64,000 bases of DNA from Dictyostelium discoideum. Its lineage: Eukaryota. Where the stretch lies: the NCBI GenBank assembly GCA_000004695.1, contig CM000154.2, positions 2,272,001 to 2,336,000 on the forward strand, read 5' to 3'. The notes under the pieces are model-generated. The model was not told the origin of the DNA and did no database searches. It saw only the letters and a list, made by a program, of their open reading frames with translations. This document shows, one piece after another, positions 1-49,161 of this stretch (positions are counted from its first letter, which is position 1; every line of letters begins with the position of its first letter). A program made the position numbers and the translations under genes.

Positions 1-1543
1 ATGTTTTATTGTTTAAACCTTTTTGATGATTATGATTTGGATGATGTGGATTTGATGATGATGTTGATGATGATCCTGATGATAATGTTGGTGATAATGT
101 AACTGTATCATCTGCACTCTTTCTAATGTGACCACTATTATTGATATTATTATGACCTTGATGATGATTATGATGATTGTGTTGATGATGATGATGATGA
201 TGATTGATACAATTTGTATTCGCTGTAATTGAATTTATAACACTTGTATTTATGCAATTTATTGGATTTGTACCAGGAAAAGTTAAACTTCTAACATTAC
301 GATTTGGTGGTGACATTGGTGGTGACATAGATGATGAAAATACATTATTTAATTCACCACTACTTGTTATACTATTACTACCAAAACTATTCTTTAAACT
401 TTTAATTGAAGATGACGATGGAAATGATGGTAAAGCAGGTGGTAAATTTGTAATTGTTGTTGTTGTTGTTGTTGATGTTATTGTTGATGTTGTTGTAGTT
501 GGGTTTGGTAATAATTCATATTGTTCATTGTTTGGCATTGATAATGGATTAAATAATGGTTGTGATATAAAATTATCATTACTATTATTAATAATATTGG
601 TATTATTATTACTATTTACATTATTATTACCACTATTATTTAAGTTAATATTATTACCACTATTATTTATTGAAGAAGAAGGTGAACTTATACTATTATT
701 ATTATTATTATTATTATTTAAACTGCAATTTAATAATGATTGTGACATTGAATATAATGTATGTGGATCAAAACTTGGTGGAGATGTAATAAGTCTTTCT
801 CTTTTTTTCTCTTTCTCTGATTCAATATCTTCAGTATAGACCAATACCTCATCAATGTTTTCAGATTCATCACTTGATTCACCACTGGTATCTTCATTTT
901 CTTGAGTATCAAATTCACCATGATGATGATGATGATTATGAAGATGATGTTCAATTGAATGAGCCAATATCGGATCCATACCTTCATTGAAAAAGTTATC
1001 TTCATTCTCTTCATTATACCCTATTATATCATCATGGTTCATAATTTCATCATTTTCTTTTTCTTTTTCTTTTTGTTGTTGTTGTTGAAGTTGATATAAT
1101 AATGTATTTTGGTCAGTTATGATATTATTTGAACCATGATTTAAAAATTCTTTATCTCCACTTGAAAACAGTATATTTTTATCAGAAAGAGATTGTTGTT
1201 TTTTATCTTGTTCATCAGCACCATCTTGTTGTTGTTCCAGCAATGTTGAATTTGGTAATGGTACCTTAATTTTACTATTTAAAAATATTCCATTACTACT
1301 ACCCCTTAATTCTATTTTATTTACATTTATACATGTCGAAATTGGTGATGGTGTATTATTTATATTTATATTATTGATTATATTTGAGTTTTTATTTACA
1401 TTATTTACAATTAGTTGTTCATTACTACTAGTATTGGTACATGAATTTAATAGGGTTCTCAGCGTAATTCCCTCACCATTAATATTATTATTATTATTGT
1501 TATTATTGTTATTATTATTATTATTATTATTAAAACTATCCAT
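1..1543 (-). CDS. 5' portion of a gene encoding a low-complexity Asn/Ser/Thr/His-rich protein; the ORF is open to the window start, so the 3' part of the gene lies outside the window
   Basis: Minus-strand ATG at 1541-1543 ([12 protein letters not shown]...). I translated a single continuous frame from there to position 1 with no stop. It includes QQQQKEKEKENDEIMNHDDIIGYNEENEDNFFNEGMDPILAHSIEHHLHNHHHHHGEF (about 900-1080) and an HHHHHHHQHNHHNHHQGH tract (about 140-200). The plus-strand ORF 204..839 and the minus ORF 730..1014 in the track are antisense or out-of-frame shadows of this gene. Confidence 0.6.
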   Translation of the reverse strand, partial: MDSFNNNNNNNNNNNNNNNNINGEGITLRTLLNSCTNTSSNEQLIVNNVNKNSNIINNININNTPSPISTCINVNKIELRGSSNGIFLNSKIKVPLPNSTLLEQQQDGADEQDKKQQSLSDKNILFSSGDKEFLNHGSNNIITDQNTLLYQLQQQQQKEKEKENDEIMNHDDIIGYNEENEDNFFNEGMDPILAHSIEHHLHNHHHHHGEFDTQENEDTSGESSDESENIDEVLVYTEDIESEKEKKRERLITSPPSFDPHTLYSMSQSLLNCSLNNNNNNNNSISSPSSSINNSGNNINLNNSGNNNVNSNNNTNIINNSNDNFISQPLFNPLSMPNNEQYELLPNPTTTTSTITSTTTTTTITNLPPALPSFPSSSSIKSLKNSFGSNSITSSGELNNVFSSSMSPPMSPPNRNVRSLTFPGTNPINCINTSVINSITANTNCINHHHHHHQHNHHNHHQGHNNINNSGHIRKSADDTVTLSPTLSSGSSSTSSSNPHHPNHNHQKGLNNKT

Positions 1544-2257: not shown

Positions 2258-3171
2258 TGGGGGTATGTCGTGGGGGAAAAAAAAGAAATAAAAAAAAAAA
2301 AAGGAAATTTTTTTTTATTTATTTTATTTTTATTTTTTTTTTTTTAAAATCTTGAAAAATTTAAAAATAAAAATATATAAAAAAAAAAAGTATTAAAATT
2401 AAAAAAAAAAAAAATAAATAAATAAAAAATAGTTTTTAATGGTGCTAGTTTTTATTCTATGTGTATAATTGGTTAATTAATGAATAATAAAAATAATTAA
2501 TTTTACCAACCTTTTTTTTTTTGTTTTTTTTTTTTTTTCCTTTTTTTTTTATTTTTTCTTTTTTTTTCTTTTTTTTTTTTTTCAAAAAAATTTTTGGATT
2601 GAGGGGTACTTTAATATGAGCTGGTATCATTTATTTAAAAAATTATATCCAAATTAACTTCTATGGTTCATTAGAAAATGCAACGTCGAGTTCAGGAAAA
2701 AAAAAAAAAACAGTTAGGAATTTTGTAAATTTTGATGGTGTGACACATTTGATAGAGCCAATTATTTGAAATTTTCATCAAGATATTTTTTTTTAAAGTT
2801 TTTATATTTTTTTTTTTTTTTTTCATAAAAAAGTGATTTGCCTTTTCACGTAAAACGAAAAAAAGTGAACAGTAAAATGGTCAATTATTAATATAAAAAG
2901 AAAAAATGCCTCAATCTGATTAATTCACAAGATAAATAAGTATCACTTCTTTATTAGAAACTAATTTACCGAGATATTTCAAATGCAAAAATTAAAAATA
3001 AAATAAAATATAAAAAAAAAAAATAAAGACTATTATCACACAAATTATTTTTCAAATAAATAAAGATTTTTTTTTTTTGTATAATTTTTTTAATTCATTT
3101 ATTTTTTTTTTTTTTTTTTCAAATAAATAAATAATCAAAAAAAAAAAAAAAATAATTATGAAAATAAAAAA

Positions 3172-3247
3172 TATTAATAAAGAAAAAAAAAAATATTTTT
3201 TATGCATATTTAAAAAATTAATAGAAGTGTAATATTATGGAATGAGT

Positions 3248-3283
<36 letters not shown>

Positions 3284-3367
3284 AATTAAAAATAAAGAAA
3301 AAAAAAAAATATTTTTTGTACATATTTAAAAAATTAATTAATAGAAGTGTAATGAAATGGGAGTGGT

Positions 3368-3398
<31 letters not shown>

Positions 3399-3417
3399 AA
3401 AAATTTGAAAAATAAAT
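3172..3417. repeat. Imperfect tandem duplication of about 123 bp in the upstream region of the cysteine-rich protein gene
   Basis: Units ..aaagaaaaaaaaaaatattttttatgcatatttaaaaaattaatagaagtgtaatattatggaatgagtggtaaaa(A)n and ..aaagaaaaaaaaaaatattttttgtacatatttaaaaaattaattaatagaagtgtaatgaaatgggagtggtaaaa(A)n. Confidence 0.75.
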
Positions 3418-3553
3418 CTTGAGAATTGGTTTAAAATTATTATTATTATAATTATTTATTATTTATTATTAATAGATTTATACTAAAAAAAAAAAAAATT
3501 AAAAAAATTAAAATAAAAGAATATTCTTTTTCTTTGGTAAAATTAAAATTAAA

Positions 3554-5122
3554 ATGATTAATGGTTTTTGTTGTTGTCATAGTGGTTTTAATGAAAACAT
3601 TAAAAATTTTAAAATTTACAGCAATAACAATAACAACAACAATAACAATAAAATTTATTTAATTTTAATTTTAATATTATCAATTTATATTAAAGATTGC
3701 AATGGGCAGGTAAGACCAGAATTACCAAGGAATAGACCACCACCTATTACAACATTAGCATGTAGTCTCAATAGTTGTTCAGAACAAGGCGAACCATGTA
3801 GTTTTAATTTATCAAGTGGTTCAAGTGGATTTACATGTTATGTTGCAGATCGTTGTAAAAATGGGACATGTGTACCAAGTTTACAACAGGGCGAAGTATG
3901 TATAGATAGTGATGAATGTAATTTAGGTTACTCATGTGTTACAGAGTTATCAAATCTCTCATTTACACTACCCAATAAAACCAAAACTTGTGAACCTTCT
4001 TTCTTTTCTGAATATGGTGGCCCTTGTAGGCGTGCAACAGATTGTTTAAATAGTTTAGATTGTATTAATGGTACTTGTAGTACTCCACTTTATGGTTGTT
4101 TGTCTGATTTATCTTGTGATAGAAATTCAATTTGTGTTAATGCAACATGTGTTTATAGACCTTTAGGTGTAAGTTTTAAATATTTATAAAATCCATATAT
4201 TAAAATATTGTGTACAAATAATTTAAACATATTATTATTATTATTATTTTTTTTATATTTATCAAAAAAAAAAAAAAAAAAAAAAATAAGGAAAATGAAT
4301 GTTATATGTCAAGATCATTTGATTGTAAAAATACATATAATCCATGTACTTTAAGTAGTTTAAATGTTTCATCAATAGGTGTTTGTTTAGAGTATATACC
4401 ATTGGGAAATCCTTGTTTAACTACAAAATATTCTTGTGATTGGAGAACTGGCCAGGTTGTAAGTTGATTTTAATTATTACTTTTTTTTTTTTTTTTTTTT
4501 TTTTTTGTTTTGGAGCCTAATTTTTTTTTCTTGAAACAATTTAGTGTAGACCCCTATTTCTTGGATCAATAGTTGGTAGATGTGTAGTTGTACCAGATGA
4601 TCCAATTATTTCATGTGTAACAGCTTCAAATTGTAGACCTTATGAATTTTGCAAGTAAAGTATATCTTTAAAGATTTATTTAAAAAAAAAATCAACAGAA
4701 ATTAATACCTTTTTTTTTTTTTATTTTTTTATTTTTTTTTTTTTTTCAAATAAAATAGATGTGATTCACAATCTGGAGTTGGATATTGTGTAAAGAGAAC
4801 ATTTTTCGCAGGGAAATATTGTAGACAAGCATTTATATTATTTCTTGACTGTTATAGAACAACAAATTGTACTCAACCATTTTCATTTAATCCAACATCA
4901 TGCATATTAAGAAGTCATTGTAAAGAATTGGCAATTTGTGTTGCATCATTTTGTACTGAACCTTTATTACCAATTTCATTATGTGTGAGTAGAACTTGTG
5001 AATTATCAATTTTTAATGACTCTAGTGTTAGAACAATACTTTCATCTTCATTTAATGATCATATTATAAAACCTTGGAAATATTTTAAAATAATATTATT
5101 ATTTTTATTTTTAATTATATAA
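3554..5122 (+). CDS. Secreted, probably GPI-anchored, cysteine-rich repeat protein. Four exons: 3554..4168, 4291..4458, 4545..4654, 4759..5122
   Basis: Hydrophobic signal-like segment KIYLILILILSIYI. Many CxxxGxC / NGTC motifs. Donors GTAAGT at 4169 and 4459 and GTAAAG at 4655. Acceptors ..aaataag (4290), ..tttag (4544) and ..aaaatag (4758). Intron phases are consistent (0,0,2). C-terminal hydrophobic tail KIILLFLFLII suggests a GPI-anchor signal. ORF-track pieces 3554..4189 and 4928..5122 are exons 1 and 4. Confidence 0.6.
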
Positions 5123-5324
5123 TATAATATAATATTTAATAATTAATTTTAAAATAACTTGAAACTTTATTGAAATAGTTATGTGTGGAACATAATTATT
5201 GAAAAAATTAAAAAAAATAAAACAAATAATAATAATAATAATAATTTCTTTATTAAAGAAAGATATCTTTTTTTTTTTTTTTATACATTTTTATTTTATA
5301 TATTTATTTATTTTTATTTGATGT

Positions 5325-8300
5325 TTATTTTTTTAAAGGCTTTGTTGTAGTAGTTGTAGTTTTTGTAGGTGTAGTTGATGAGGTAGTTGGTCTAGATGGT
5401 AATGCAGCAGATGACGGTCTGGTAGTTATAAATTTAGAAGTTGGAGTTGTTGTCGTTGTCGTTGTCGTTGTTGAAGTTGTTGGGGTTGTTCTTGATGGAG
5501 ATGATATACCAGCTGCTGAACTTGGTCTATTAATCGGTGATTTTATTGATGAGGTTGGTGGTGTTGAAGATGATGATGGTGTTTTTGGTTTCATTGGTGA
5601 AGATGAAGGAGTTGAAGATAATCTACTACCACCAATTGATGAAGATGGTGATTTTAAATTTGAAGTGGTATTACTAGTGGTTGTTGTTGTTGGTTTATTA
5701 ATAGTTCTTTGACCACCAATTGAAGATGAAGATCTTGTTGGAGATGGTGTATTTGAAACTACAGTTCTTAAAGTACCACTTGAAACATTTGTTCTATGAA
5801 CACCTAATTTATATTGAACTGAATTTGTATCTTCTTTATCATCCAATTCAGGTGGAGCAGGAGTACCAGATCTTAAAATAGAGGATGGTGATCTTGAGTA
5901 AGGAGCAGGGGTACCAGATCTTAATGTAGACGAAGGGAAATTAATATTTTTAGTTGCTTTGATTACATTTCCTTTAATTGGTGATAATGGTTGAGACGTT
6001 TTAATTTCTCCACTATTAGTTTTATAATTTTTTTGAATTTGTAATTTTTTCATTTCATCATTGTTATTATTGTTGTTGCTATTATTATTGTTGTTTGAAT
6101 CATCTTGAGATTGATTAATTTTATCAATATCAGAAGCAGTGATAACTGAATTATAACGAATTAAGAAATCTTTTAAAGTCATCCAACCACCACCAACTCT
6201 AACTACTATCATATTGTTTACACAACGCATATTAACGATTGAATCACCCCATTTATATTTATTTGCAGATAATCTAACGATTTTATTTGGTACAACGATT
6301 GATGGTGGTAAAATATTCTTCATTGTGTTATTTAAGAATTCACCAAAAATTCTATCAGTTTGATCAGATGCAACACTTGAATATTTTGGATAATTTGAAA
6401 CTGAACTATAGGATCTATGATAGGAATAATCCTTTTTAATAATTTCTCTCTTTGGTTGATTACTTTCATTTGAAATATCAATATCAACATCTAAATCCTC
6501 CATTGGAGGTGGTGATTCATCATCCTCAGGAATATTTGAAATTGTTGAGGAGGTGGTTGCTGTTGTAGTTGGTTCAGTATTTTTATAAGTTGTAGATGAA
6601 CTATTACCATTTGAAATAGCATTACTTAAATTACTTAATGATGAAGATGGCCTTTTAAGTAATGATGGTTGTGGTTGTTTAGATGGTGATGACATTGGTG
6701 TTGTAGTTGGTGAAGGTAAAGGTGTTGTAATAGTTGTAGTTGTAATAGTTGTAGTTGTTTGATATGATTTTGTTGGTGTTGATGATGATGATGATGGAGA
6801 CATCGTTGCCTTTTTAGCCTCTTCAACCACTACATTTGCAGCTAATGTTCTCTTTTTAGTTGGAGTTTGTAATTTAGATGGTTTTGGTGTTTTACTTGGT
6901 GATGATACTGGAGTAGTAACTGGAGTTGTAATTGGTGATGTCTCTGATTTTTCTGGTGGAATTGTAATGGTTGTAGTAGTGATTGTAGTGGTTGCAGTAT
7001 ATGTTTTTTGAGGAGTTGTTGGTGGGGTCGATAAAATTGAAGAGGATGATGGTGATGATAAAGTTGTAGTTGAAATTGGTGCTTTAATACCAGAGGTAAG
7101 TGGTTTCTTTAATTTTGATGAGGAAGATGATGAAGTTGCTTTTAAATTTGTCAATGATGAAGAAGTTGATGAAATTATCTTTGAATTATTTTTAATTATC
7201 TCCTCTTCCGTTTCACTTGATAAAGAAGAAGTAGATGATGATTTATATGTCAAAATCTTTGAATTTGAAGCTGATTCATTAATAATACTACTATCATTAT
7301 TTTTCTTACTATTTACATTTGTAGTATTTGATTCAATTAATGATGAGGATGTGGATGATAAAGATGATAACTCAATTTTCTCTGTTATTATTTCAGGTTT
7401 ATTTTCATTAATTGCCAAAGAGGAAGAAGAAGAAGAAGAAGAGGTAGAACTAATTTCTTTTTCTTGAGTGAAGGAATCTGATGTAATTTGAATAGTTGAT
7501 TCTTGTTCTTTAATGAGTTTACCAATTAAGTTATTTTTATTACTTGTTTTGGTTTGTTGAGTAAGTTGTTCTTGTTCTTGTTCTTTTTGAATTTTCAATT
7601 GTTGATGAATGTCTTCTTCTTCAATTAATGAAGATGATGATGAAGATGATGCAGAGGATATTGATGAAGATGTTGTTGTAATTGATGCAGATGAAGATGC
7701 GGTTTTTGTAGTTGTTGTTGTTGACGACTCTGTGATAATAAGAGTTGATTCTGATTGTTGTAATTGTGCCATTGAATATGTTGATGAGGACGATACTGAT
7801 GATGATGATTGAATATTTTCAACAATAGAACTATCTTGAGAAAAGGATTGGGTTTGGATCGTTTCATTAACTTTATTCTCTTGTTTGGAAATAATTTCTA
7901 AATTTTCAATTGTTTCCAATTGATTTCTATCAATATCCATTAAAGAATTCTTTGAAATTATAATTTCTTCATCCTCAGTTTTATTATCATTTTGAGATTG
8001 TTTTTCAATTTCTTCAATATCACTTGAACTATTTTCTAATACAATTAAATCTTGAGTTTTTTCATTAATTTCTACATCTTCTTTTATTTCTTCTGTATCA
8101 ACTATTATTGTATTATTATTACTTTCATTCACAACTTCATTAATTTTATTTACAATTTCATTTTCATTTTCATTTTCATTTTCATTTTCATTTTCATTTT
8201 CATTTTCATTTTCATTTTCATTTATCATTGGATGGTCTTTAATTAAAATTTCTTGAATTGAAATCTCTTCAATTTCTTCTATTTCCTCTACTTGTTTGTT

Positions 8301-10094
8301 TTCTACTTCTTCTTTTTCATTTTCATTTTTAATTTCATCAAATTGTTGATTTGATTGTAATAAAGAATCTTCAGAATCATTGATATTAATATCACCAACA
8401 CTAGAGGAAAGGTCTTGGAATTCAACCTCACTACTATCAAGTGATTCATCATTTGTATCAAAGTCTGTAGTTTCAGATTCAAGTTCTTTGGTTAATTCAA
8501 GTTTTTGATCCTGTTGATTTGAGAGAATTTCTTTCTCTTTATCTTCTTTTTCTTTTTCTTCTTCTTCTTTTTGAGGTGGTTGTTGTTGTTGTTGTTGTTC
8601 AGTTTCTTGTTCAGTTGAAATTTCACTATCTAATTGACTGATAATATCATCAGTTTCATCTCTAATAAATAATTCATTATCACCTTCTTCTTCAACAAAT
8701 GTACCCATCATATTAAATGCTTCATCAAATGTAGATTCAATAAATTCCTCTTCTTCCTCTTCCTCTTCATCATCATAATCTTCATATTCATCATCACCCT
8801 CATCTTCATCACTTTTGAATGATGGTATTGGATTATATTGACCAGAGCTTGGTCTTGATGATGATGGTGAAGAAGAAGTTGAAGAAGATGGAGAGTATGG
8901 TTTAGTGATTTCTTTTGAATTTCTTTTACTATTTAAACCTCTAGCAATACCCAAGAAAGATGAAATTGTACTCTTCTTTTTCAATTCCTCTTGTTCTTGT
9001 TTTTCTTTTTCTAATCTTTCTTTTTCTAATCTTTCATTTTCTTCTTTTTCTAATCTTTCTCTTTCTAATCTCTCTTGTTCTTCTCTTTCCAATCTTTCCT
9101 TCTCTTCTTTTTCTTTTCTTAATTTAATTGTATTCTTTCTCTTTCTCATTACTAATGTTGGTGGTAATGGTATATCAACTTGTGATGTTAAATAATTTTC
9201 TAATTGTTGTTGATCTTTTTGTTCTTCTGTTAATATTGAAGTTTCATTTAAATCTTTTGATAAAATTTTTTCATTTGACGATGATGATGATGAAGATGAA
9301 GATAAAGAAGATAAAGATGATGTTGAAGAATTATTTGATACTTTTACATTATTATTATTATTATTAGTATTGGTATTATTATTATTACTACTACTACTAC
9401 TACTATTTGAAGATTCATTATTAAAATGAGTAATCATTAATTTATGTTTAAAACCTCTTTTTGAACCTTGAATTGATAAAGCTAAAAGACAATAGATAAC
9501 TTTTTTAAGATTCTTTTTTTCATAGAGATCAGTTGGTAAGAAGAGACAATTTGAGGAAACACCCAATTCTAAGCATGCACATAAAAAGAAATTAATATTT
9601 TCAAGTTTCATATAGGATGGACCTTTTTTACCATGAATTTTCTTTACAATGCCTGGTTTAATAATGTTGACCAATTTACATAACCAAATACCATCGACTA
9701 GAGCATTAAATAAATCTTCTTCTTCAAATAGAGTATCGAAAATATCTTCTAACCATGCTCTAACTTCTTCACGATTATATAAGAATGCATAATCATCCCA
9801 TGCTCTTCTTTTAGCTGTTAATCTATTTGTATCTTTTGGTTTAAATAAAATAATATCAACATCTGAATCATCATCTTTTGAAGTTGAAGTTGAAGTTGAT
9901 GAAGTTGATGATGATTTATCAGGCGATTGAATCTCATCAGCTTTTTGAACTAATTGATTTGGTGATTGTTCTGGTGGAAATTCTGTTAATGAAATTAATG
10001 ATCTTTGTGATTTCATTCTACCATAAAAATCAACTGGTGTTGAAGGTAATGGTGAATTTTCAACATTTACTAATTTTTCTGGAATTCTTGCCAT
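5325..10094 (-). CDS. GAS2-like cytoskeletal linker: N-terminal calponin-homology (CH) domain, very long disordered acidic/Ser/Thr-rich middle, C-terminal GAS2-related (GAR) domain, then a basic S/T/P-rich tail
   Basis: Single 1589-aa ORF. CH-like region RAWLEDIFDTLFEEEDLFNALVDGIWLCKLVNIIKPGIVKKIHGKKGPSYMKLENINFFLCACLELGV (about nt 9450-9800). GAR signature KWGDSIVNMRCVNNMIVVRVGGGWMTLKDFLIRYN (about nt 6150-6350). Middle contains (NE)12, poly-Ser, ERLEKE repeats and acidic runs. Confidence 0.75.
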   Translation of the reverse strand: MARIPEKLVNVENSPLPSTPVDFYGRMKSQRSLISLTEFPPEQSPNQLVQKADEIQSPDKSSSTSSTSTSTSKDDDSDVDIILFKPKDTNRLTAKRRAWDDYAFLYNREEVRAWLEDIFDTLFEEEDLFNALVDGIWLCKLVNIIKPGIVKKIHGKKGPSYMKLENINFFLCACLELGVSSNCLFLPTDLYEKKNLKKVIYCLLALSIQGSKRGFKHKLMITHFNNESSNSSSSSSNNNNTNTNNNNNNVKVSNNSSTSSLSSLSSSSSSSSSNEKILSKDLNETSILTEEQKDQQQLENYLTSQVDIPLPPTLVMRKRKNTIKLRKEKEEKERLEREEQERLERERLEKEENERLEKERLEKEKQEQEELKKKSTISSFLGIARGLNSKRNSKEITKPYSPSSSTSSSPSSSRPSSGQYNPIPSFKSDEDEGDDEYEDYDDEEEEEEEEFIESTFDEAFNMMGTFVEEEGDNELFIRDETDDIISQLDSEISTEQETEQQQQQQPPQKEEEEKEKEDKEKEILSNQQDQKLELTKELESETTDFDTNDESLDSSEVEFQDLSSSVGDININDSEDSLLQSNQQFDEIKNENEKEEVENKQVEEIEEIEEISIQEILIKDHPMINENENENENENENENENENENEIVNKINEVVNESNNNTIIVDTEEIKEDVEINEKTQDLIVLENSSSDIEEIEKQSQNDNKTEDEEIIISKNSLMDIDRNQLETIENLEIISKQENKVNETIQTQSFSQDSSIVENIQSSSSVSSSSTYSMAQLQQSESTLIITESSTTTTTKTASSSASITTTSSSISSASSSSSSSLIEEEDIHQQLKIQKEQEQEQLTQQTKTSNKNNLIGKLIKEQESTIQITSDSFTQEKEISSTSSSSSSSSLAINENKPEIITEKIELSSLSSTSSSLIESNTTNVNSKKNNDSSIINESASNSKILTYKSSSTSSLSSETEEEIIKNNSKIISSTSSSLTNLKATSSSSSSKLKKPLTSGIKAPISTTTLSSPSSSSILSTPPTTPQKTYTATTTITTTTITIPPEKSETSPITTPVTTPVSSPSKTPKPSKLQTPTKKRTLAANVVVEEAKKATMSPSSSSSTPTKSYQTTTTITTTTITTPLPSPTTTPMSSPSKQPQPSLLKRPSSSLSNLSNAISNGNSSSTTYKNTEPTTTATTSSTISNIPEDDESPPPMEDLDVDIDISNESNQPKREIIKKDYSYHRSYSSVSNYPKYSSVASDQTDRIFGEFLNNTMKNILPPSIVVPNKIVRLSANKYKWGDSIVNMRCVNNMIVVRVGGGWMTLKDFLIRYNSVITASDIDKINQSQDDSNNNNNSNNNNNNDEMKKLQIQKNYKTNSGEIKTSQPLSPIKGNVIKATKNINFPSSTLRSGTPAPYSRSPSSILRSGTPAPPELDDKEDTNSVQYKLGVHRTNVSSGTLRTVVSNTPSPTRSSSSIGGQRTINKPTTTTTSNTTSNLKSPSSSIGGSRLSSTPSSSPMKPKTPSSSSTPPTSSIKSPINRPSSAAGISSPSRTTPTTSTTTTTTTTTPTSKFITTRPSSAALPSRPTTSSTTPTKTTTTTTKPLKK

Positions 10095-10134
10095 TTCTTT
10101 TTTTTATTTATTTATTTCTATTTGTTTTCTATTT

Positions 10135-10170
<36 letters not shown>

Positions 10171-10279
10171 GAATTATTATTTTATTTTATTTTTTTTTTT
10201 TTTAAATAAAAAAAAAAATTTCAAATTTTATCCATAAATCTATAAATTTTATATTTGGTTATTCTTTATTATTTCTATA

Positions 10280-10311
<32 letters not shown>

Positions 10312-11369
10312 TTTTTTTTTTTTTTTGCCTTATTGATTGATGTTTTTATTTGATTTTTGAGTTTTTGATTTTTTTTTTTCTTTTTTTTCTTTTCTGGAAA
10401 AAAAAAAAAAAAAAATTATTATTTATTATAGTAAAAGTAGTTTTTATATAGTAATTTAATTTGAATACATTGATAAAATTGGTTATGTGGGGACAATGAG
10501 AAAAAAAAAAAAAAAAAAAATAATAAAAAAAAAAAAGACAAAAAAGACTCGCAAAATTTAAAAAAAAAAAAATAAAAAAAAAAAAGTTTTCAAATAATTT
10601 TTTCTTGAAATAAAAGATATTTTATGATGATGTGGAATTTTCTGCGTTTTTTTTGATGAAAAAGAAAATAATGATGATAAAAAAAAAATAAAAAAAAAAC
10701 AAAAAAAAAAATAACAAAACAAAAAAAAAAAAAATTAATAAAATTAAATAAAATGAAATAATTTTAAAATATATTTTAATTTAAATCATTTTTTTATTTT
10801 TGATTGTGGTGGTTGTGTTTGTTCCAAAAAAAAAAAAATAAAAAAATAAAAAAAAAAAAAACCAAAAATAAAAAAAAAAAGGGGGGATCTAACCAATTTT
10901 ATTTTTCCCTTTAAATATCCTCTAACTTACCTTTTTTTTTTTTCTATATAAATTACAAATAAATTTCAAAAATAATAAAAATGATAATTTTGTTTTTTTA
11001 TTTTTGTTACTTTTACTAAAAAATTGTTTTTATAATTTTATATCTTTACAAATTCCATTTTTTTTATTTTTTTTATTTTTTTTTTTTTATTTTAATTTTT
11101 TTTTATAAATTCTTAAATCTAAAAATAACTTTTTGTATAGATTTAGGTTTTAATAATATTATTAATGATAATTTAAATTTAGTAAGTAAACACACCAGAC
11201 AGTTTATTTTTTTTTTTTTTATTTTTTTTTTTTTTTTTTTTTTACCACTACCCCAAACCTTTCATTTTTCACCTTTTTTTTTTTTTTTTTTTTTTTTTTT
11301 ATTTTTATAATTTTTTAAAATTCATTTTTATTATTTCATTATTTTATTTTATTAATTTTTTAAAAAACA

Positions 11370-12584
11370 ATGTTTAAAATTACTATGGCAAAATCAACAA
11401 ATAATACTGCAATATCAAGTGCATTAAATTCATTAAAACAAAATTATACACCATCAAATATTGTATCATTATATAGTAAAACAGCATTAGAATTAAAAGA
11501 TGCAAAAGAATTTTATGGAAAATCCTATTATCCCGGTCAATTAGTGCCAAACTTTTATCAAACCAAATATGAAGCAGAACAAGATGACACTGACAATAGT
11601 AGTAGTGATATTGTTATTGACGAAAAATTTAAAATAGTATTACAAACTCAACAACAACAACAGCCCCAACAAGAAATAGAAGATACAAATGTTTTTAATA
11701 TTAATCAATATTTCCAAGGTTTGAAATCGATTTTATTCGGCAACCAAATCATTCACTCTAAATTATTATCATCAACACAATCATTATCATTGAAATATCT
11801 ATCAAATACTAAACAGGGTATTGTGGTAGTATCAGACCAGCAGACCAATGGTAAAGGCAGGGGCGGCAATCAATGGGTGTCGCCAATGGGGTGTCTATTA
11901 TATTCATTCAAATGTAAACAAACCGATGGTACTAAACTACCATTCCTCCAATACGTAGCAGGTTTAGCACTCATTGAAGCAATTCATTCATTTCCAATCG
12001 CATCAGATTTAAACGTTCGTCTAAAATGGCCAAACGATATCTACGATGGTGATAGTAATTTAAAAATTGGTGGTATCTTATGTCAATCGAATTACTTTGA
12101 TAATCAATTCGATATCACAATTGGTATTGGTCTAAATGTTACAAATTCAAGTAACCCAACAATTTCAATTAATGAAATGATTTTTAAAAAAGAAAACAAA
12201 AAAACAACAACAACGACAACAACAACAACAACAACAATAACAACCACACCAACAACTACACCCACACCAATTTATATTAGTAGAGAATCATTATTATCAA
12301 GGTTTTTTAATGTTTTTGAAGAAATTTATCTAACATTTACAAGAGATGGTTTTAGAACATTAGAAAAGAGATATACTGATGCTTGGTTACATAGTGGTTC
12401 AGTTGTACAAATTAAAGAGAAAAACAATCAATATGTTAAAATCATTGGTATAACAGAGAATGCCTTTTTAAAATCAATTGAATGTGATTCAAATGGTAAT
12501 CAAACTTCAAATATTATACATGAATTACATCCAGATGGTACTTCATTTGATATTGAAAATTTAATTTTAAAAGAAAAAAAATAA
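11370..12584 (+). CDS. Biotin--protein ligase (holocarboxylase synthetase family), catalytic BirA-like domain
   Basis: 404-aa single-exon ORF. Biotin-ligase glycine-rich motif QTNGKGRGGNQWVSPMG (compare BirA Q..GRGRRGR.W.SP.G). KWPNDIY motif. A Thr/Pro-rich linker sits before the C-terminal domain. Confidence 0.75.
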   Translation: MFKITMAKSTNNTAISSALNSLKQNYTPSNIVSLYSKTALELKDAKEFYGKSYYPGQLVPNFYQTKYEAEQDDTDNSSSDIVIDEKFKIVLQTQQQQQPQQEIEDTNVFNINQYFQGLKSILFGNQIIHSKLLSSTQSLSLKYLSNTKQGIVVVSDQQTNGKGRGGNQWVSPMGCLLYSFKCKQTDGTKLPFLQYVAGLALIEAIHSFPIASDLNVRLKWPNDIYDGDSNLKIGGILCQSNYFDNQFDITIGIGLNVTNSSNPTISINEMIFKKENKKTTTTTTTTTTTITTTPTTTPTPIYISRESLLSRFFNVFEEIYLTFTRDGFRTLEKRYTDAWLHSGSVVQIKEKNNQYVKIIGITENAFLKSIECDSNGNQTSNIIHELHPDGTSFDIENLILKEKK

Positions 12585-12636
12585 AAGAATAATGATGATG
12601 ATTTACAACATTTTTTGTTTGGTTTCTTTTGTTTTT

Positions 12637-13502
12637 TTATTTATCTTCTTTATGTTTAATTATACCATTATCAACTAAATGTGGTACTTCGGCTGCTAAC
12701 CAAGGTGCTAAACCTAATGCTAATGCATGTGCAATCCCAAAATGTGGTACATTTCTTGACCATAATGGTTTAAAATGAATAGTTAAACAAATTTTACCAC
12801 CTCTATACATTTTCTCTGTTTTACCATCTAATTCTGGAATTGCAATTTCTGGTGCTGTTTCTGGATATGTTACTGGCATCTAAAAATATATATTAAAATT
12901 TATATTTTTAAAAAATAAAAATAAAAATAAAAATAAAAAATAATAACTTACATCAAATTCCAGATCAAATTCATATTTTTTAAAATTATAAATATACCAA
13001 CATTTTCCTTGCCATCTAAATATAGTAATGTGTGGTGTGTGTGTGTGTGTGTGTGTGTATAGATATTATTAAATAATTTTTGTTAGCAATTTTAAAAAAT
13101 TTAATAAAGATGATATTTCCAGTTTATTTTTTTATTTTTATTTTTTTATTTTTTTTATTTTTTATTTTTTTATTCTTTATTTTATTACCTACCTTGTTCC
13201 TAATGGATTTGACTCGATATTAAACCAATCATTATCTGCTTTTTTATTAATTTCAACATACTAAATCGTTTTGAAAAAGATAAAATAATAAAATAATAAA
13301 AAAAAAAAATAAAAAAAAAATGAAAAAAATAAAAAATTTAGTATAAGCGAGTAAAAAAATGATCAAAGTTATTATTTTTTACTTTTATTAATGCTTGATA
13401 TTCTTCTTTTAATCTATCAATCCACTTATCACCATCTCTAGGTCCTGCCTTTACTGTTAATAATGGAATTTGTTGAACTGTTTGTTTGGTGTGGTTATCC
13501 AT
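12637..13502 (-). CDS. ufc1: Ufm1-conjugating enzyme 1 (UFC1). Four exons: 13383..13502, 13193..13260, 12952..13015, 12637..12879
   Basis: Assembled protein [40 protein letters not shown] / [23 protein letters not shown] / [21 protein letters not shown] / [66 protein letters not shown] is collinear with human UFC1, including the catalytic Cys in KICLT. Donors GTAAAA, GTAGGT, GTAAGT; acceptors ..tttag. Phases 0,2,0. Confidence 0.85.
13029..13058. repeat. (GT)15 dinucleotide microsatellite inside a UFC1 intron
   Basis: gtgtgtgtgtgtgtgtgtgtgtgtgtgt within the intron 13016..13192. Confidence 0.9.
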
Positions 13503-47653: not shown

Positions 47654-49010
47654 TATTTATGTTTTTATATAATATATTTATTATTTTTATATTTATAGTT
47701 TAGTTTTGTTTTTTTTTTTTTTGTTGTTGTTGTTGCTTTTGTTGTTGTTGTTATTGTTATTGTTGTGTTTTGTTTATTAATTTTGTGTGTAGGAAATTAT
47801 AATGATTTTTTAAATATATATATATTAATGACCATATATTTTTAAAAAAATATTATAATTATTTTTATTATTATTATTATTACTGTTTAACTACTATACA
47901 TAAAATATAACATATAAATACACAATAAATGATATTGTGCTATGGCGATTGGTTTGTAGGTGTTGATGTTGGTGTTGATATTAGTGTTGGTGTTGTTTTC
48001 TTATTGACTATTGTTATTTTTTATTATGATTTTTTATTTTTATTTTTTTTTTTTTTACTAATTTAACAAATTAACTTCTAAAATTTTTAAATTTTTAAAT
48101 TTTTTTTTTTTTTTTTTTTTTAATTTAAAATTATTAGTATTATTAATAAAATAATAATAATAATAAAAAAACAATCCCTTCTTTAAGTAGTTTGTGTTTG
48201 TGTGTGAGTGTGAATATGATGTTATTGTTGTTTAATTAATTATTATTTTAATTTTTGTTGTTTTGTGTGTCTGCACCCTTATTAATAAAAATAAAAATAA
48301 AAATAAAAATAAAAATAAAAATAAAAAAAAAAAAAATTTAAAATTTTTTTTTTTTTTTTTTTTTTGTTTTTTTTATTTTTTTTTATTTTTTTTTTTTATT
48401 TTTTTAAATTTTTTTTTTTTTTTTATTAAATATTTTATACTCATATATGGAAGTAAAATTTAAAACATCCACAATTGTGGTTTTGATAAAAACAAAATTT
48501 TAAAAAAAAAAAAAAAAAAATTAAAACAAAGAAATTTTCGTAAGAATCTGATAATCAGATCTATTTTTTATTTTTATTTTTTTTTTAAAAAATGATGGAA
48601 TTGAAGTTTTAACTTTATTTTATAAAAAAAATAAAATAATAATAAATAAAAAAAAAAAAAAATAAATAATATTAAATAATTAAATAATAGTCATAGTATA
48701 AAAAAAAAACTTCCAAAAAAAAAAAAAAAAAAATTTTTTTTTAAACATTTACTGGAAACTGATGGTCATATTCCAATGATTGCAATCACTCAAATATAAA
48801 CAATGTTAAGAAATTAATAATTAAATTTATGGAATTTAATCCTTTTATTCAACAACAGCAACAACAAATCCTACTACTACAACAACAACGATAGGATGAC
48901 AGCAGAAACCACAGCAACGAATTATTTATCAATTAATGAATAGATTTCCAAATTTTGTTTGAATATCAAAAATGAGAAGGAGCTATTTTCCAAAAAAAAA
49001 CATAAAAAGT

Positions 49011-49083
49011 GCCTGGATGGCTCAGTAGGCAGAGCGAGCGGCTGTTAACCGCTAGGTCCATGGTTCGATCCCATGTCTAGGCG
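49011..49083 (+). tRNA. tRNA-Asn (anticodon GTT)
   Basis: Cloverleaf by eye: acceptor gcctgga / tctaggc (one G-U pair), D-arm gctcagtaggcagagc, anticodon stem agcgg / ccgct with loop ctGTTaa, T-arm catggttcgatcccatg, discriminator g. No intron, no encoded CCA. Confidence 0.9.
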
Positions 49084-49161
49084 ATAATTTTTTGGTTTTT
49101 TTAAATTATATAGAAAAAGGATCTAACAAAAGAAAGAAACATATCAGTATCCGTTCAACAA

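Follow-up and report, generated by a model that had tools for sequence, protein, structure and literature searches.

The minus-strand open reading frame (ORF) at 5325..10094 in a 64,000-nucleotide stretch of the Dictyostelium discoideum genome (assembly GCA_000004695.1, contig CM000154.2, positions 2,272,001 to 2,336,000; the whole stretch is hereafter called the window) probably encodes a GAS2-like cytolinker that ties actin filaments to microtubules. Its predicted product of 1589 residues carries a single calponin-homology (CH) domain near the N-terminus and a GAR domain followed by a basic tail at the C-terminus, with about 1000 residues of low-complexity sequence between the two folded modules. 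By analogy with the animal GAS2 family, such a protein would crosslink the two filament systems directly. The original prediction, made from the letters of the sequence, had already proposed a GAS2-like actin–microtubule linker, and this reading gains support from the profile matches of the combined CH and GAR domains, from the fold of the GAR domain, and from the retention of all five mapped microtubule contacts.

Both domains that the prediction had named were recovered by Pfam well above their cut-offs. The CH core (PF00307) scored 52.2 bits against a cut-off of 26 (E=8e-14), and the GAS2 core (PF02187), which contains the VRVGGGW signature and whose detection the prediction had been staked on, scored 44.2 bits against 21.3 (E=1.7e-11). 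At E<=1, Pfam returned only these two domains, besides a sub-threshold match to DUF4342. For the family search, the CH and GAR blocks were concatenated into one profile because low-complexity words overwhelmed the full-length query (8000 candidates, 3 hits). This profile retrieved a protein of Physarum polycephalum as well as annotated metazoan GAS2, GAS2L3 and Pigs proteins. Two dictyostelid orthologues were identified, one from Synstelium polycarpum (P0002) and one from EukProt (P0001); the word-indexed homologue search overlooked evident relatives (a query with GAR by itself found none, and the profile did not recover its own members), and the non-detection of other dictyostelid orthologues does not amount to real absence. 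The features that characterize the GAS2 family were found in the expected order, namely one type-3 CH domain close to the N-terminus, as identified by Pfam and by matches in the PDB, a GAR domain with an alpha/beta fold C-terminal to it, and a tail that is basic and unstructured by composition, for which microtubule affinity is putative.

Structure prediction, put forward earlier as a check on the domain assignment, favored it for the GAR region. A confident AlphaFold2 (AF2) model, based on a 21-sequence alignment, matched only solved GAR structures in a fold search; PDB hits for the GAR domain were 5x57 and 5ve9. An earlier version based on three sequences (predicted local distance difference test score, pLDDT, 49.5) was not used for that search. 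A 2025 cryo-electron microscopy study of mouse GAS2 identified microtubule contacts at R242, R252, the G-hairpin (G255), W257 and K266, and validated them by mutagenesis (PMC12084551). These contacts, which lie in the beta3-beta4-beta5-alpha2 region, map onto R1290, R1299, G1301-1303, W1304 and R1313 of the window protein, so that five of five are kept, and the same residues are invariant across the three dictyostelids.

The CH domain was compared with the PDB using a profile built from the CH regions of six CH-GAR proteins. The best matches were all of type 3 (calponin, Rng2, IQGAP1, Vav and GAS2), with E-values of 2.8e-24 for Rng2, 5e-24 for calponin-1, 2.6e-17 for IQGAP1 and 1.5e-14 for the GAS2 CH3 domain (9kbx). 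The matches to Rng2 and IQGAP also covered a strictly conserved segment ahead of the Pfam core (RLTAKRRAWDDYAFLYNREEVRAWLE), and the insert of about 25 residues found in animal GAS2 CH domains is absent. By its profile matches, the CH domain resembles those of IQGAP, Rng2 and calponin more closely than that of animal GAS2. To map the actin contacts of mouse GAS2 CH3 onto the window protein, its sequence was taken from the PDB alignment; F108 and F109 (ABD2') are conservatively replaced by Y161 and M162, and R144 by K197. With T129, E133 and the ABD1 contacts not conserved (see below), F-actin binding by this domain is plausible, though unproven.

The C-terminal tail carries a net charge of +22, is 51% Ser, Thr and Pro, and contains 16 S/T-P sites. 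The tails of P0001, P0002, P0004, P0028 and P0038 are likewise basic (net +13 to +32). Its conserved motifs (see also Table 1) include 2x LRSGTPAP, KLGxHRTxVxSGxLR and [DE]x[WM]Kx(L/I)x(I/L)Q, the last also present in more distant relatives.

Several observations weigh against a GAS2-like crosslinker. All four zinc ligands of the animal GAR domain (CxC...DxC), described as essential for its structural integrity, are replaced here, by I1266, V1268, N1315 and V1317. The AF2 alignment includes animal GAR domains, and the model is therefore not independent of the homology assignment. In the CH domain, GAS2 residues T129 and E133 correspond to the non-conserved N182 and L186, and the ABD1 contacts (L16/Y22/W25/H30/E31) cannot be aligned, an IQGAP/Rng2-like extension standing in their place. 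Some type-3 CH domains, including that of calponin, do not bind actin alone. A motif scan of the D. discoideum tail found no SxIP, and EB1-mediated plus-end tracking is consequently not supported; in the entire window protein, SxIP matches number 3, against 3.6 expected from shuffles. A literature search retrieved no experimental study of the Dictyostelium protein, and the roles of the linker as a tether or in autoinhibition are speculative, drawn from the animal family.

The replacement of the zinc ligands is shared by the Physarum protein and by metagenomic relatives, and none of the 67 GAR domains that lie closest to the dictyostelid profile, in a library of 1.84 billion proteins, carries the full zinc motif. 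Even in animals, only some of the named proteins have it complete. Fish GAS2L3 retains three ligands out of four, and the CxC is absent from some mollusc and echinoderm proteins, which means that the motif does not hold across the entire Pfam family. We read the zinc-less GAR domain as a widespread variant, not as a peculiarity of this gene.

Both orthologues have canonical-looking SxIP motifs (PSKIPRPPSS, PSRIPS) on either side of the GAR domain, at residues 1017, 1121, 1430 and 1468 of P0001 and at residues 1009, 1015 and 1364 of P0002. The window protein reads SPSKQPQPS at residues ~1133-1140, which align with an orthologue SxIP. This alignment suggests that an EB1-binding motif has been lost or replaced in D. 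discoideum.

The sequence between the two domains measures about 1010 residues by structural boundaries and about 1063 residues between the Pfam envelopes, in agreement with the acidic, Ser-rich spacer of about 1000 residues that had been predicted; Asp and Glu make up 19% of it, Ser and Thr 30%, and its net charge is -94. Measured as the distance between the domains in the alignment, the spacing is 1019 residues here and 976 and 881 residues in the other two dictyostelids, compared with 168 in Physarum, 158 in P0004, 39 in P0028, 19 in P0038 and 33-156 in animal GAS2-family proteins. Relative to other members of the family, the linker is 6-30 times longer. The two other dictyostelid linkers have net charges of -101 and -87. 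All three retain an acidic block at approximately deciles 3-5 and a basic Ser/Thr/Pro-rich stretch directly before the GAR domain, along with short conserved islands (DIPLPPTL with a basic patch, ISSF, and a poly-E/DETD block). Judged from this comparison, the linker is conserved in length and charge pattern and not in sequence.

The details given in the original prediction are essentially right, and two of the repeats that it named call for a small correction. The perfect NE run proved to contain 11 copies, one fewer than stated. The ERLEKE repeats are present at residues ~324-372, within which the DNA forms a tandem array (8994-9120); the disorder assigned to them is doubtful, given that charged residues make up 82% of the segment, that opposite charges are paired at i/i+4 22 times per 40 residues, and that a heptad pattern is lacking. 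From composition only, this segment is likely an ER/K single alpha-helix. A coiled coil was rejected for it, since the leucine spacing (8, 5, 8, 5) does not fit heptads. P0004 has similar E/R/K repeats between its CH and GAR domains; in P0005, which is N-terminally incomplete, they precede the GAR domain.

The linker could nevertheless be the result of neutral expansion of low-complexity sequence, as is common in the AT-rich genome of D. discoideum, in which case the protein would act as a short GAS2 with inert filler. Three-way identity among the dictyostelids, which is 76% in the CH region, 62% around GAR, 48% over the first 50 residues and 23% in the tail, falls to 7% in the linker; the DNA contains many short tandem arrays; and Physarum, P0004 and animals manage with at most about 160 residues between the same domains. 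Although this makes neutral expansion a serious possibility, we consider it unlikely, because three dictyostelids, including Synstelium polycarpum, have kept the length, the net charge, the position of the acidic block and the islands, and because E/R/K repeats recur in P0004 and P0005.

The actin side of the proposed crosslinker is open to another interpretation, in which the GAR domain and tail sit on microtubules while the CH domain binds not F-actin but a signaling or scaffold partner, or microtubules, making the protein a microtubule-associated scaffold. The CH domain matches calponin as well as it matches Rng2 and IQGAP, the calponin CH domain is generally known not to be the actin-binding site of that protein, and the ABD1, E133 and T129 contacts of GAS2 are not kept. 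Single CH domains can moreover be dispensable for actin localization, as in D. discoideum AbpG (PMC4357508), although the AbpG domain is of the CH2 type. We regard a pure scaffold as quite improbable, since Rng2 and IQGAP1, the closest solved homologues once the N-terminal extension is included, are both F-actin binders, ABD2' still has its hydrophobic pair and the R144 position its basic residue, and the pairing of CH with GAR has been kept from Amoebozoa to animals (PMC9145010). AbpG itself was ruled out as the identity of this gene, as it combines a CH2-type domain with coiled coils.

Several results support the gene model. The ORF listing gives 1589 uninterrupted codons and one stop, while 20 shuffles of the AT-rich window produced no stop-free stretch above 145 codons, so the frame is not a product of chance. 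The GC content is 29% across the gene and 11% in third codon positions; the gene is flanked by intergenic DNA of 9-15% GC. An identical 1589-residue protein is a called gene in another public D. discoideum assembly (GCA_054883475.1), on a 5.29-Mb contig. Both P0001 and P0002 share the start M-A/S-R-I-P-E/D and the entire architecture with the window protein, and P0002 also shares its C-terminal end (..KK); with architecture and ends held in common, neither introns nor a gene fusion need be assumed. That a separate CH gene and GAR gene have been read as one ORF, for which the sole point is the unusual distance between the domains, is effectively refuted by the open frame, the same architecture in P0001 and P0002, the same domain order in P0004, P0028, P0038 and Physarum, and the single called gene in the public assembly.

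Some further features of the locus were recorded. The public locus (CM142511.1 2316986-2327755, our L001) is non-identical to window positions 2321-13105, being 15 bp shorter over 10.8 kb, and encodes the same 1589-residue protein; the window thus derives from another assembly or strain of D. discoideum. P0001 has an additional C-terminal DUF4326 domain (residues 1555-1639) that is without counterpart in the window protein and P0002, and this extension is probably a merged gene model. On the plus strand of 5325-10094 (for example at 7609-7812 and 8905-9195), ORFs of 40-96 residues are low-complexity mirror images (poly-F/L/S, poly-D/E) and not genes. RNA folding of the 5' leader, which is A-rich and unstructured, revealed nothing.

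Among known proteins, the window protein most resembles GAS2, GAS2L1-3 and Pigs, with which it shares its layout (one type-3 CH domain, then GAR, then a basic tail without structure), as well as the VRVGGGW hairpin and every mapped microtubule contact. It differs from them in its linker length, in its GAR domain without zinc ligands, and in its CH domain without the insert and the ABD1 contacts. GAS2L1-3 and Pigs have SxIP motifs in their tails, whereas GAS2 itself, like the window protein, does not; similarity to the C-terminal dimerization segment of GAS2 is not established. Spectraplakins (MACF1/ACF7, dystonin, Shot) also have a C-terminal GAR domain (5x57, 5ve9) followed by a Ser/Gly/Arg-containing basic tail, and an N-terminal CH-type module distant from it, following the same logic of a long actin–microtubule tether. 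In spectraplakins, however, the CH domains form a CH1-CH2 tandem and the spacing is provided by a rod of spectrin repeats, in contrast to the single CH3 and low-complexity sequence here. Pfam detected no plakin domain, spectrin repeats or EF-hands in the window protein, which is thus not a spectraplakin in the strict sense.

The amoebozoan CH-GAS2 proteins of PMC9145010, the Physarum polycephalum transcript P0078 and the metagenomic P0004 belong to the same family and have the same zinc-less GAR domain, with PP-x-hydrophobic-x-hydrophobic-P in place of CxC. All of these relatives have an acidic linker and P0004 also a basic tail, but a linker of about 900-1000 residues occurs, within the available sample, only in the three dictyostelids. 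The likeness to IQGAP, Rng2 and calponin, whose solved CH domains score best with the N-terminal helical extension included, is confined to the CH module; Pfam identified no IQ motifs, GRD/GAP-related domain, RasGAP-C or calponin repeats in the window protein.

Extrapolating from the animal family, the GAR domain would insert its VRVGGGW hairpin into the tubulin intradimer groove, and would do so without a structural zinc ion, with hydrophobic residues at the ligand positions. The basic tail may contribute electrostatic affinity for the lattice, probably under regulation by phosphorylation; in GAS2L1, both GAR and tail contribute to microtubule binding (PMC6831992). With the CH3 domain bound to F-actin, a single molecule could tether microtubules to the actin cortex. 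The acidic linker with its short ER/K helix would form a long flexible tether reaching tens of nanometers or more, far beyond the filament spacing of 12-22 nm organized by GAS2 (PMC12084551). Because it is strongly acidic and faces a basic GAR-tail module, the linker could also join in intramolecular inhibition, which has been documented for GAS2L1 (PMC6831992) and Shot; more speculatively, it may fold back on that module and keep the protein switched off as long as either filament is missing.

A more elaborate proposal is that the dictyostelid proteins form a GAS2-like subclass combining a zinc-independent GAR domain (which may represent the ancestral state outside animals), an IQGAP-like CH3 domain and a polyacidic tether of conserved length, about 1000 residues, that would serve both as an entropic spring setting microtubule–cortex reach and as an in-cis mimic of the acidic tubulin tails, masking the basic GAR-tail module until actin is engaged. 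We offer it as a conjecture with a rather poor chance of holding in full.

The core finding is not new, because the protein is among the genes called in a public assembly and the combination of CH and GAS2 domains in Amoebozoa, described as slime molds, was reported bioinformatically in 2022, in an evolutionary study that drew on the D. discoideum proteome among others (PMC9145010). That study grouped the amoebozoan proteins with human G2L1 and proposed the same actin–microtubule function; no D. discoideum accession was found in its supplement. The variant features may be described here for the first time: a very long acidic linker whose length is conserved, a GAR domain without zinc ligands, a CH3 domain like that of IQGAP/Rng2, and the lack of SxIP. 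No GAS2-type direct actin–microtubule crosslinker studied in Dictyostelium was found in the searchable literature. Dictyostelium is a main non-animal model for cell motility and microtubule–cortex interactions, and a single-exon gene is an easy target for knockout or tagging with which to ask whether GAS2-type crosslinking predates animals. The zinc-less GAR domain provides a natural test of the need for the zinc site in microtubule binding, and the very long acidic linker a natural case for the tuning of a cytolinker through tether length and charge.

Table 1 Features of the CH-GAR gene and its predicted protein (nucleotide positions are those of the window)
Feature	Residues	Position	Strand	Remark
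Complete single-exon coding sequence	1-1589	5325..10094	minus	ATG start; stop codon at 5325-5327
Conserved N-terminal region (MARIPE...LPSTPVDFYGRMKSQRSLISLTEFPPEQSP)	1-45	9960..10094	minus	48% three-way identity among dictyostelids
Type-3 CH domain with conserved N-terminal extension	84-225	9420..9845	minus	Putative F-actin-binding module
Pfam CH core (PF00307)	108-207	9474-9773	minus	
Low-complexity linker	226-1235	6390..9419	minus	
ER/K-rich charged segment (KEKEEKERLEREEQERLERERLEKEENERLEKERLEKEKQEQEELKKK)	~324-372	8979..9125	minus	Likely single alpha-helix spacer
Acidic block	431-760	7815..8804	minus	115 D+E vs 21 K+R
Conserved poly-E/DETD island	~436-488		minus	Inside acidic block
(NE)11 run	625-646	8157-8222	minus	Inside acidic block
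Ser-rich, then Thr/Pro/Lys-rich low-complexity segments	761-1000, then 1001-1199	6498..7814	minus	
GAR domain	1236-1325	6120..6389	minus	Putative microtubule-lattice-binding module
Pfam GAS2 core (PF02187)	1271-1314	6153-6284	minus	Contains VRVGGGW
Basic Ser/Thr/Pro-rich C-terminal tail	1326-1589	5328..6119	minus	264 residues
2x LRSGTPAP	1391-1414	5853-5924	minus	Conserved tail motif
KLGVHRTNVSSGTLR	1429-1443	5766-5810	minus	Conserved tail motif

Several other genes were identified in the window. A convergent, intron-containing gene with a 418-residue product lies downstream of the CH-GAR gene at ~3554-5120 on the plus strand (L001 7973-9541), according to gene calls on the public locus; the ORF of its first exon (3554-4189) encodes a Cys-rich, secreted-looking protein. 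On the other side, separated by about 1.27 kb of DNA with a GC content of about 14%, a divergent gene at 11370-12584 (plus strand) matches exactly the biotin--[acetyl-CoA-carboxylase] ligase 3 of D. discoideum AX4 (XP_636438.1 / Q54I33). By the gene calls on the public locus, a UFC1 gene (PF08694) follows past the biotin ligase at ~12.6-13.1 kb (L001 1-469), and ARAGORN detected a tRNA-Asn gene with anticodon GTT at 49010-49084 on the plus strand.
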